A DNA stretch of 20,767 nucleotides from a virus: UHGV virus genome UHGV-2126844, one strand, 5' to 3'. Both the position numbers and the translations under genes were made by a program. The first letter of the stretch is position 1, and every line of letters starts with the position of its first letter. The notes beneath the pieces were generated by a model. The model was not told the origin of the DNA. It ran no database searches and was given only the letters and a program-made list of their open reading frames with translations. Shown piece after piece: positions 2,712-7,462 of this stretch.

Positions 2712-2733
2712 GAAAAAACCGCCATCAGGCGGC
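2712..2733 (-). terminator. Candidate rho-independent terminator on the minus strand (stem ccgcc/ggcgg, loop tgat, then UUUUUUCUU) overlapping the stop of the 55-aa ORF, just upstream of xis
   Basis: Read directly: plus strand aaaaaaccgccatcaggcgg; the minus-strand RNA forms a GC hairpin followed by a U-run. Strength and function not tested. Confidence 0.45.
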
Positions 2734-2892
2734 TTGGTGTTCTTTCAGTTCTTCAATTCGAATATTGGTTATGTCTGCATGTGCTATCTGCGCCCATATC
2801 ATCCAGTGGTCATAGCAGTCATTGATGTTCTCTGCTTCGATAACTCTGTTGAATGGTTCTCCATTCCATTCACCTGTGACTCGGAAGTGCAT
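2725..2892 (-). CDS. Small 55-aa ORF in the position and length of lambda's unnamed ORF upstream of xis
   Basis: ATG at 2892 preceded by GGAG; translation MHFRVTGEWNGEPFNRVIEAENINDCYDHWMIWAQIAHADITNIRIEELKEHQAA. Below the 60-aa cut-off of the supplied track; found by manual translation. Offset from int/xis matches my recollection of the lambda map. Confidence 0.55.
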   Translation of the reverse strand: MHFRVTGEWNGEPFNRVIEAENINDCYDHWMIWAQIAHADITNIRIEELKEHQAA

Positions 2893-3431: not shown

Positions 3432-3770
3432 TTATATCATTAATTTTGTTTCGTGCCAGCCTTTGGTCACCCAGCATTGTGAGTCACCATTACACGGGCA
3501 TGAATTAACAGGAACTCTCTCGCCGCACTTACCGCAACGTTTTCTGCTGATCGATTTTATACGCCAGCGCACACGTGCATCATCCTGGCGGCTCAGTAAC
3601 GCGATGTACTCACCAAACTCGTAAGGCGCATGCCTGAAGCGGCGCGTGGCTCAGTTACGATCCAGCATTTCAATTTCCTGAGCATCAAGTACAAGCTCCA
3701 GCTTACGCATACCGGATGATGCTTGCTTGGCTCTCTGATCGACTTTGCGCTCTGCTGATGATTTAGCCAT
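3432..3770 (-). pseudogene. 112-codon frame encoding a ribbon-helix-helix-like N-terminus and a C-terminal zinc ribbon (CGKCG...CPCN...C), interrupted by an in-frame TGA at 3651-3653; nonsense-disrupted gene or two very small genes
   Basis: Manual translation: MAKSSAERKVDQRAKQASSGMRKLELVLDAQEIEMLDRN-stop-ATRRFRHAPYEFGEYIALLSRQDDARVRWRIKSISRKRCGKCGERVPVNSCPCNGDSQCWVTKGWHETKLMI. RBS AGGAAAAG before ATG at 3770. No in-frame ATG after the TGA; only a GTG about 46 codons from the end. Confidence 0.4.
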
Positions 3771-3964
3771 TCTGCTTTTCCTGCATTAGGAGAAAGACAA
3801 TCATGGCGGCGCGGATACTTCCGGTATCTTTTTACTCGATATTACCCTTCAATGGCACATACAAGAAGAGAGCCATCAACAGGAGTGAGTGAGGAATCGA
3901 CAACCAGCAACTCTTAATTATCTATAGTGTCGTATTTGCTTCATAAAATATGGCGAATAACACA

Positions 3965-4976: not shown

Positions 4977-5228
4977 TCACGCTGCTCGTTGAGTTTTGAT
5001 TTTTGCTGTCTCCAGCTCAACACGCAGTTTCCTCACCGTTAGCGCAATATCCTCGTTCTCCTGGTCGCGGCGTTTGATGTACTGCTGGTTTCTTTCCCGT
5101 TCATCCAGCAGTGTCAGCACAATCGATGGTGTTACCAGCTCATGGAAAAGGTCCGCGTCAAATCCCCAGTTGTCATGCATTGCCTGCTCTGCCGCTTCAC
5201 GCAGTGCCTGAGAGTGAATTACGCTCAC
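4977..5228 (-). CDS. 83-aa ORF at the ea22 position, translationally coupled to orf73 (GTGA overlap); the same frame continues for 53 codons past an in-frame TGA (4977-4979) to TAG at 4815-4817
   Basis: Track ORF MSVIHSQALREAAEQAMHDNWGFDADLFHELV...KTQRAA (the M is a GTG start). Manual translation after the TGA: VEGVISDGSKRIAELEAWVEYTRAAYVRAKDKGDLIRVITRQPTGFYAYVPCN. Assignment to ea22 is by position only. Confidence 0.5.
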   Translation of the reverse strand: MSVIHSQALREAAEQAMHDNWGFDADLFHELVTPSIVLTLLDERERNQQYIKRRDQENEDIALTVRKLRVELETAKIKTQRAA

Positions 5229-5446
5229 TTCGAACCTCTCTGTTTACTGATAAGTTCCAGATCCTCCTGGCAACTTGCACAAGTCCGACAACCCTGAACG
5301 GCCAGGCGTCTTCGTTCATCTATCGGATCGCCACACTCACAACAATGAGTGGCAGATATAGCCTGGTGGTTCAGGCGGCGCATTTTTATTGCTGTGTTGC
5401 GCTGTAATTCTTCAATTTCTGATGCTGAATCAATGATGTCTGCCAT
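5225..5446 (-). CDS. orf73: TraR/DksA-family C4 zinc-finger protein (73 aa), lambda Orf73-like
   Basis: 73-aa ORF with CxxC...CxxC (CCECGDPIDERRRLAVQGCRTCASCQ), characteristic of TraR-like RNA-polymerase-binding proteins. Size and position between the ea22 region and exo match lambda orf73 as recalled. Confidence 0.8.
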   Translation of the reverse strand: MADIIDSASEIEELQRNTAIKMRRLNHQAISATHCCECGDPIDERRRLAVQGCRTCASCQEDLELISKQRGSK

Positions 5447-6183: not shown

Positions 6184-6860
6184 CGCCATTGCTCCCCAAA
6201 TACAAAACCAATTTCAGCCAGTGCCTCGTCCATTTTTTCGATGAACACCGGCACCATCTCGTCAAAACTCGCCATGTACTTTTCATCCCGCTCAACCACG
6301 ACATAATGCAGTCCTTCACGCTTCATACGCGGGTCATAGTTGGCAAAGTACCAGGCATCTTTTCGTGTCACCCACATGCTGTACTGCACCTGGGCCATGT
6401 AAGCCGACTTTATGGCCTCGAAACCACCGAGCCGGAACTTCATGAAATCCCGGGAGGTAAACGGGCATTTCAGCTCAAGGCCATTGCCGTCACTGCATAA
6501 ACCATCGGGAGAGCAGGCGGTGCGCATACTTTCGTCGCGATAGATGATCGGGGATTCAGTAACATTCACGCCGGAAGTGAATTCAAACAGGGTTCTGGCG
6601 TCGTTCTCGTACTGTTTTCCCCATGCCAGCGCCTTAGCATTAACTTCCGGAGCCACACCGGTGCAAACCTCAGCCAGCAGGGTGTGGAAGTAGGACATTT
6701 TCATGTCAGGCCACTTCTTTCCTGAGCGGGGCTTGGCTATCACGTTGTGAACTTCTGAAGCGGTGATGACGCCGAGCCGTAATTTGTGCCATGCATCATC
6801 CCCCTGTTCGACAGCTCTCACGTCGATCCCGGTACGCTGCAGGATAATGTCCGGTGTCAT
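6180..6860 (-). CDS. exo: Lambda exonuclease (Red-alpha), 226 aa
   Basis: Full-length ORF; translation [65 protein letters not shown]... matches lambda Exo as recalled. Confidence 0.96.
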
Positions 6861-7300
6861 GCTGCCACCTTCTGCTCAGTGGCTTTCTGTTTCAGGAATC
6901 CAAGAGCTTTCACTGCTTCGGCCTGTGTCAGTTCTGACGATGCGCGAATGTCGCGGCGAAATATCTGGGAACAGAGCGGCAATAAGTCGTCATCCCATGT
7001 TTTGTCCAGGGCAATCAGCAGAGTGTTAATCTCCTGCATGGTTTCATCGTTAACCGGAGTAATGTCGCGTTCCGGCTGACGTTCTGCGGTGTATGCGGTA
7101 TTTTCGACAATGCGCTCGGCTTCATCCTTGTCATAGATACCAGCAAATCCGAAGGCCAGACGGGCACACTGAATCATGGCTTTATGCCGTAACATCCGTT
7201 TGGGATGCGACTGCCACGGCCCCGTAATTTCTCTGCCTTCGCGGGTTTTGAATGGTTCGCGGCGGCATTCATCCATCCACTCGGTAACGCAGATCGGATG
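6857..7300 (-). pseudogene. bet: 5'-truncated bet (Red-beta): only about the C-terminal 140-145 codons remain; homology ends near 7300 with an in-frame TAG immediately upstream
   Basis: Minus-frame translation ...NHPICVTEWMDECRREPFKTREGREITGPWQSHPKRMLRHKAMIQCARLAFG...KATEQKVAA matches the C-terminal half of lambda Bet. Upstream of about 7300 the sequence is unrelated and AT-rich. Confidence 0.85.
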
Positions 7301-7462
7301 ATTACCGGTTCGCTACCAGGGAAGAACGGGAAGGAAAGGTGAGCACGAATCTGATTTTCAAGGAGTGTCGCCAGAGTGCCGCGATGAAGCGGGTGTTGGC
7401 ATTTTATCGCGGCAATTTTCAATAGACTATGTACATAAAAATATCATTTTTTTAATACATGT

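Follow-up and report, generated by a model that had tools for sequence, protein, structure and literature searches.

The interrupted reading frame at positions 3432-3770 raises a simple question: is it one small gene broken by a stop codon, two genuinely tiny genes lying end to end, or a single gene whose stop is read through? The locus lies in a 20,767-nt stretch of the virus genome UHGV-2126844, the whole of which is referred to here as the window. A reading of the sequence alone had left the choice between a recent nonsense mutation in a cryptic-prophage gene and two tiny genes, had proposed a ribbon-helix-helix (RHH) protein with a zinc ribbon, and had raised the possibility of a toxin-antitoxin pair.

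Translation of window:3432-3770 on the minus strand gave MAKSSAERKVDQRAKQASSGMRKLELVLDAQEIEMLDRN, which is the 39-codon stretch from ATG 3770, then a stop, then ATRRFRHAPYEFGEYIALLSRQDDARVRWRIKSISRKRCGKCGERVPVNSCPCNGDSQCWVTKGWHETKLMI and a final stop. The frame was as originally described: 39 codons from the ATG, which has a Shine-Dalgarno-like AGGA on its 5' side, to the TGA at codon 40, followed by 72 codons to a TAA at 3432-3434. Past the TGA, the sole in-frame Met was codon 111. The earliest in-frame alternative start was GTG 3572, the late GTG of the sequence-only reading, which corresponds to codon 67, has an AGGA 10 nt on its 5' side and would open a 46-aa ORF (3432-3572). The Cys cluster in the remainder of the gene has the pattern C79-x2-C82...C91-x-C93...C99. 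Coordinates are collected in Table 1.

Table 1. Coordinates of the interrupted gene, its parts and its nearest neighbours in the window.
Feature	Position	Strand	Basis or remark
Pseudogene, PHROG 536 family, 112-codon ORF	3432..3770	-	Stop at codon 40 (translation, profile match)
Premature TGA, codon 40	3651..3653	-	From TGT (Cys), T-to-A at gene position 120
Silent C, gene position 129 (CGC, codon 43)	3642	-	Variable-site table, fixed differences
Residual 39-codon ORF	3654..3770	-	Basic N-terminal helix, putative ribbon strand, most of helix 1
Gene remainder after the stop, untranslated	3432..3650	-	Loop, helix 2 (the long helix, residues 52-76), Cys cluster
DUF2513 gene, 142 aa	2975..3403	-	Pfam DUF2513, E=6.8e-11
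UmuD-like S24 peptidase remnant, 66 nt	3845..3910	-	PGAP: incomplete 'DNA repair protein'

Once Cys was put back at codon 40, the resulting 112-aa protein matched PHROG 536 ('transcriptional regulator') almost from end to end, residues 1-111 aligning with positions 2-114 of the 115-position profile at E=6.7e-49, and 299 database homologs were found at E<=1e-3. Length was exactly 112 aa in 104 of the best 120 homolog clusters. The uninterrupted ORF of ~112 codons that PHROG 536 membership calls for was absent here, with the TGA at codon 40, and the locus is therefore a pseudogene member of the family. Aligning the homologs, as the sequence-only reading had proposed, gave the codon that was lost: all three intact loci in the DNA alignment, those of phages Chlobot, TL-2011b and phiV10, had TGT at codon 40, and the nearest, that of Chlobot, was 97.3% identical over 481 nt. 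Cys40 was likewise invariant in an alignment of 108 intact 112-aa proteins from Escherichia, Salmonella, Citrobacter, Klebsiella, Enterobacter, Raoultella and Edwardsiella. Because intact homologs read TGT and Cys40 is invariant, the ancestral codon was TGT and the window carries a T-to-A nonsense change. Judged from these alignments, the interruption is a Cys-to-stop nonsense mutation in a single gene rather than the boundary between two tiny genes. Had the latter been the case, the two halves should always be separate genes at homologous loci; the opposite was found, homologs being overwhelmingly single proteins of full length. The nonsense option put forward at the outset has thus been borne out by the TGT codons, by the invariant Cys40 and by the defective state of the host prophage (see below).

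The pseudogene status of the locus is already known, being flagged in NCBI PGAP/RefSeq annotation: all seven genomes inspected carry 'hypothetical protein; internal stop' over the same interval, including strains ATCC 8739, PEC1009, 1409, TW14425 and LR-28 and a plasmid-like element of SZQ1. Literature searches found no functional study of the PHROG 536 family or of the locus tags, and the vB_EcoP_ZX5 paper deals with other ORFs. The Uetakevirus 'transcriptional regulator' (epsilon15 p49, phiV10 p55, TL-2011b gp20) belongs to the same family over its whole length, and the phiV10 and TL-2011b genes share with the window gene ~90% nucleotide identity, 112 codons and the Cys pattern. In TL-2011b the Uetakevirus gene lies just 5' of the small terminase gene, whereas the window gene lies in the accessory region close to int and xis and is interrupted. 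Chlobot is the sole isolated phage of the clade, and its ORF is intact. The Chlobot GenBank record (PP925838) omits this intact 112-codon ORF (1591-1929) and instead lists a 105-aa 'UmuD-like protein' with a TTG start in another frame (1451-1768), together with a 46-aa 'transcriptional regulator' called from an internal GTG (1789-1929). Gene calling around the UmuD remnant probably produced this mis-annotation.

The product of the intact gene is a conserved protein of 112 aa, whose N-terminal half comprises a basic helix, a short extended segment and two helices and whose C-terminal half carries a CxxC...C...C cluster. An AlphaFold monomer of medium confidence (pLDDT 72.6) placed helices at residues 5-18, 30-42 and 52-76, followed by a Cys-rich tail, with coil at 19-29 and an extended segment at 22-28. 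The break does separate the start of the protein from helix 2, as the sequence-only reading had it, but not in the loop: on this model the stop would fall in the last turn of helix 1, with the loop at residues 43-51. The proposed RHH and zinc-ribbon architecture is plausible and weakly matched, as no Pfam family passed threshold for the protein, its 108 close homologs or 57 distant ones, and the matches to YbfE, RHH, TraR and YbiI were all sub-threshold. NCBIfam YbfE 'LexA-regulated protein' matched residues 9-47 at E=0.041 (cut-off 62 bits); RHH_5, RepB-RCR_reg and RHH_1 matched one or two of the 57 distant relatives each, at E 0.013-0.07. The family profile searched against PDB sequences gave YbiI (E=0.049) and TraR (E=0.063 and 0.071) over residues 48-109, and also a sub-threshold adenylyl cyclase-associated protein. 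Foldseek of the model against the PDB returned nothing at E<=0.001 (best E=5.7). Pfam Fer4_20, a 4Fe-4S domain, matched 52 of the 108 close homologs weakly (best E=0.012), probably as an effect of Cys spacing.

Across the 57 distant relatives (25-50% identity), C79 and C82 were invariant and C99 nearly so. We infer that the intact protein could be a dimeric RHH-like DNA binder with a C4 zinc finger. In the model, the order of elements (extended segment 22-28, helices 30-42 and 52-76) resembles that of RHH proteins (CopG/Arc/MetJ superfamily; YbfE), unlike which the PHROG 536 protein would add a basic N-terminal helix and a C-terminal Cys cluster. It also resembles proteins with a DksA/TraR C4 zinc finger (TraR, YbiI) in having a long helix followed by CxxCG..(I/V/L)P, whereas its second Cys pair, C91/C93...C99, is spaced unlike the DksA/TraR CxxC-x17-CxxC. 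Membership of DksA/TraR was not found, with no match to Pfam zf-dskA_traR and only sub-threshold profile E-values; the weak TraR and YbiI matches may point to remote kinship or to no more than a CxxCG..P zinc-finger motif in common. A true TraR/DksA-family gene of 73 aa is present in the window at 5225-5446 (-), 1.5 kb from the pseudogene.

The window runs from ybhC through a lambda-type int, xis, a 55-aa ORF, the DUF2513 gene, the pseudogene and the S24 peptidase remnant to a gene for a 204-aa predicted lipoprotein, an ea22 remnant, the TraR/DksA gene, exo and a truncated bet/recT. The whole window was 100% identical to strains such as PEC1009 and MS 124-1. The 481 nt around the TGA were identical to ATCC 8739, which differs from the window by one IS1 length and in gene content beyond bet. 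In strains of the PEC1009/MS 124-1 type, a ~23-kb element sits between ybhC and ybhB (att-lambda); PEC1009-type elements lack head genes, tail genes and an immunity region; their bet/recT is truncated and joined to what is left of ren, ea22 carries a frameshift, and ren and lom are partial. By its gene content the host element is a defective lambda-like prophage of E. coli with several further pseudogenes. The bet/recT gene (window 6857-7425, -) is cut at its 5' end, leaving a 139-codon ORF that abuts the ren remnant, and the immunity and replication region between bet/recT and ren is deleted in this window type; full-length bet is retained in ATCC 8739 and TW14425. Such truncated, frameshifted and IS-interrupted genes are also seen in cryptic lambdoid prophages of E. 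coli with decay of the DLP12, Rac and Qin type, and the right arm of the window prophage is DLP12-like (ybcN, ninE, ybcO, rusA, ylcG, quuD, porin, essD, rrrD, rzpD, bor, nohD). Unlike those prophages, the present one is integrated at att-lambda (ybhC/ybhB) and has lambda-type Int and Xis, and its nonsense allele also occurs in a near-complete circular phage genome.

Decay extends to the immediate neighbours of the pseudogene. The S24 peptidase fragment is internal and itself contains a stop, reading EG and then the stop against EGEYRVK in Chlobot; strain LR-28 has a longer remnant (246 nt, annotated 'S24 family peptidase'), and the 5' end of the query sequence matched the umuD-like gene of phage D6. 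The 55-aa ORF between DUF2513 and xis (window 2725-2892) has its own internal stop in TW14425 (L046, 3795-3962), which is further decay in the same accessory region. No sigma-70-like site turned up in a consensus scan of the coding strand around the gene. On the other side, the DUF2513 gene begins 28 nt past the pseudogene TAA, with a GGAGG ribosome-binding site of its own. It was this neighbour that would have made up a toxin-antitoxin pair, an idea that did not survive comparison of homologous loci: DUF2513 was missing at those of phiV10, TL-2011b, Salmonella and Klebsiella and adjoined the gene only in the att-lambda clade. Elsewhere the intact gene was found in the nin region (Salmonella), 5' of the small terminase gene (Klebsiella, TL-2011b) or at the genome end (phiV10). 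PADLOC gave no match for either the PHROG 536 protein or the DUF2513 protein. A type II toxin-antitoxin or defence cassette was rejected on these grounds, the pairing not being conserved and the partner matching DUF2513 only, with no known toxin or defence family.

We evaluated the frequency of the TGA allele with two probes against 5,426 complete E. coli genomes. A 61-nt probe found the gene in 500 of these, in identity classes of 100% (29 genomes), 96.7% (36), 93.4% (81; the value that same-clade TGT alleles should show) and 80-90% (357; the other clade). A 28-nt probe spanning the TGA and C129 matched 65 genomes (63 exactly), and the 100% and 96.7% classes are therefore TGA alleles. Scanning IMG/VR gave 19 contigs with the TGA allele and 21 TGY alleles of the same sub-clade, as defined by the protein motif RRFR. 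The TGA share of the clade is ~45% (65 against 81 genomes, 19 against 21 IMG/VR loci), with the qualification that the isolate genomes are highly redundant, several re-sequencings of ATCC 8739 being among the 65. Among isolated phages of the phage collection, the TGA allele was not found.

At least three haplotype groups could be told apart among the TGA alleles, with differences of up to 11 of 339 nt between them. In the alleles compared, only positions 120 and 129, nine bases apart, were fixed differences between TGA and TGT alleles of the clade: position 129 was a C wherever a TGA allele had been read (the window, 19 IMG/VR loci and three RefSeq genomes) and a T in all 21 intact clade alleles. 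Since every TGA allele compared has the linked silent C129, recurrent mutation to TGA was rejected; the pattern indicates a single origin followed by divergence and recombination. One IMG/VR locus (L037) has TGT at codon 40 together with G80R and C99Y, two changes that elsewhere accompany TGA haplotype B, and looks like an intragenic recombinant of intact and broken alleles.

At least two prophage backgrounds carry the TGA allele, one at att-lambda and one in a prophage adjoining torI/dsdC in strain LR-28. In LR-28 (L047, 2639-3712), a module of the S24 remnant, the TGA pseudogene and DUF2513 adjoins torI/dsdC; the module lies at a different site there and has therefore moved between lambdoid prophages by recombination. 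The SZQ1 'plasmid' pOHT76-1_1 (NZ_CP174001.1), a 43,337-bp circle, also carries the TGA allele. It encodes terminase, portal, capsid and tail genes as far as the tail fibre, together with int/xis, exo/bet/gam, O/P, Q and lysis genes, and so amounts to an almost complete genome of a lambdoid phage. Next to int, this record has a truncated diguanylate cyclase gene, and it looks like an att-lambda prophage that has been excised or is replicating. The mutation is accordingly not 'recent', as had been supposed, occurring as it does in 65 complete genomes, at least three haplotype groups, two integration sites and a 43-kb phage genome.

Between pairs of intact homologs, dN/dS was 0.07-0.27, which indicates a gene family under purifying selection. 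Comparison of the window allele with haplotype B, or with Chlobot, gave dN/dS 0.97 (7 nonsynonymous, 2 synonymous). Within TGA alleles, polymorphism amounted to 14 nonsynonymous and 3 synonymous changes, counts so small that 14:3 against 8:5 is not significantly different; 5 nonsynonymous and 0 synonymous changes lay before the stop and 9 and 3 after it. They included G80R, G80D and C99Y, which alter residues whose conservation across the family is 90% or more. These counts, though small, all run in one direction and point to a probable relaxation of constraint on the gene in prophages of this lineage. Further lesions were seen in IMG/VR: a second nonsense change in the same gene (C79, TGC to TGA; L028), a frameshift (L031), the TGA combined with an N-terminal frameshift (L022) and replacement of the 3' end after codon 104 (L033, L035, L039 and L044).

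Several other explanations of the stop were weighed against a loss-of-function mutation. A sequencing or assembly error in the window record can be dismissed: beyond the general prior that single-base stops can be errors nothing favours it, and the identical TGA was seen in 65 complete genomes, which come from different laboratories and platforms, and on 19 IMG/VR contigs. It is very unlikely that the pieces are separate small genes acting independently, one running from ATG 3770 (39 aa) and the other, a zinc-finger peptide of 46 aa, from GTG 3572. Both ORFs are present, PHROG 34005 (40 aa, E=2e-28) and a 39-aa cluster (P0213) correspond to the N-terminal piece, and a further cluster (P0160) matches the 46-aa piece that the Chlobot record lists as a 'transcriptional regulator'. 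Chlobot nevertheless has the intact 112-aa ORF, making the 46-aa call a gene-calling choice, and single 112-aa proteins make up the 104 homolog clusters noted above. Intact alleles have the same GTG and AGGA, so that the mutation created nothing new; two separate genes would also discard the 26 codons between stop and GTG, helix 2 included, and neither half shows purifying selection (5:0 and 9:3), the near-invariant C99 having been lost. Recoding, in which UGA would be read as selenocysteine in a Sec/Cys pair or as Trp to give the full-length protein, is scarcely credible. The stop does replace a Cys that is invariant among close homologs, as in Sec/Cys pairs, and E. coli has the Sec machinery; basal UGA readthrough in E. 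coli is well under a few per cent. An Rfam scan of the region at E<=10 found no family, SECIS included. The 60 nt that follow the UGA were folded for three alleles, with fdhF as control; the window allele folded no better than shuffles (z=+0.84), and the best hairpin differed between haplotypes A and B and was not at the position of the fdhF element. Damaging changes also accumulate downstream of the stop in TGA alleles. A bacterial selenoprotein was rejected, as no SECIS-like element follows the UGA and Cys40 is replaced in many distant relatives by Met, Ala, Arg or Ile, the position therefore not being catalytic or metal-binding.

Alternatively, the TGA allele might be kept for a function, either through low-level UGA readthrough that sets the amount of a regulator harmful when fully expressed or through separate 39-aa and/or reinitiated 46-aa factors. 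If true, this would explain why a stop of single origin stands at ~45% of the clade and in a near-complete phage genome, yet we give it very little weight. Adaptive inactivation, in which the intact protein would burden the lysogen, or the phage in this host background, and its loss would be favoured, is improbable. In its favour are the ~45% share, the independent breakage of the same gene by other lesions within the clade, and the movement of the allele between prophages at different integration sites and its occurrence in the near-complete phage genome. The same pattern is equally expected of a neutral pseudogene hitch-hiking in a vertically inherited, recombining prophage; moreover, the isolate genomes are heavily redundant through the re-sequencing of ATCC 8739, and the TGA mutation arose from a single origin without recurrence.

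The best explanation, to which we assign a probability of about 90%, is that the change of the Cys40 codon from TGT to TGA is a nonsense mutation that has inactivated a small accessory phage gene, carried by a lambda-like prophage lineage which integrates at att-lambda and is defective in the window. Translation from ATG 3770 would stop at 39 residues, ahead of helix 2 and the zinc finger, and we infer that a product lacking these would have no two-helix dimer core and therefore be non-functional. The mutation arose once; it would then have been passed on vertically with the prophage, and recombination would have carried it into other prophage backgrounds, the gene drifting as the constraint on it relaxed. 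The gene appears to be dispensable for the phage, and the allele would therefore persist as neutral baggage. Between the stop and the DUF2513 gene, ~219 nt of mRNA would go untranslated, and transcriptional polarity might lower expression of the DUF2513 gene, although its own ribosome-binding site would act against this. Given the ~45% share and the 43-kb phage genome, there may also be selection for loss, or a residual function of the pieces.

The finding matters little: the TGA is confirmed as a genuine nonsense change, and the accessory phage gene that it breaks is a conserved one. The PHROG 536 family to which this gene belongs has a consistent predicted architecture of basic helix, RHH-like segment and C4 Cys cluster. 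The TGA together with C129 is a single-origin marker, which can be used to trace a lambdoid prophage module across E. coli genomes and integration sites.
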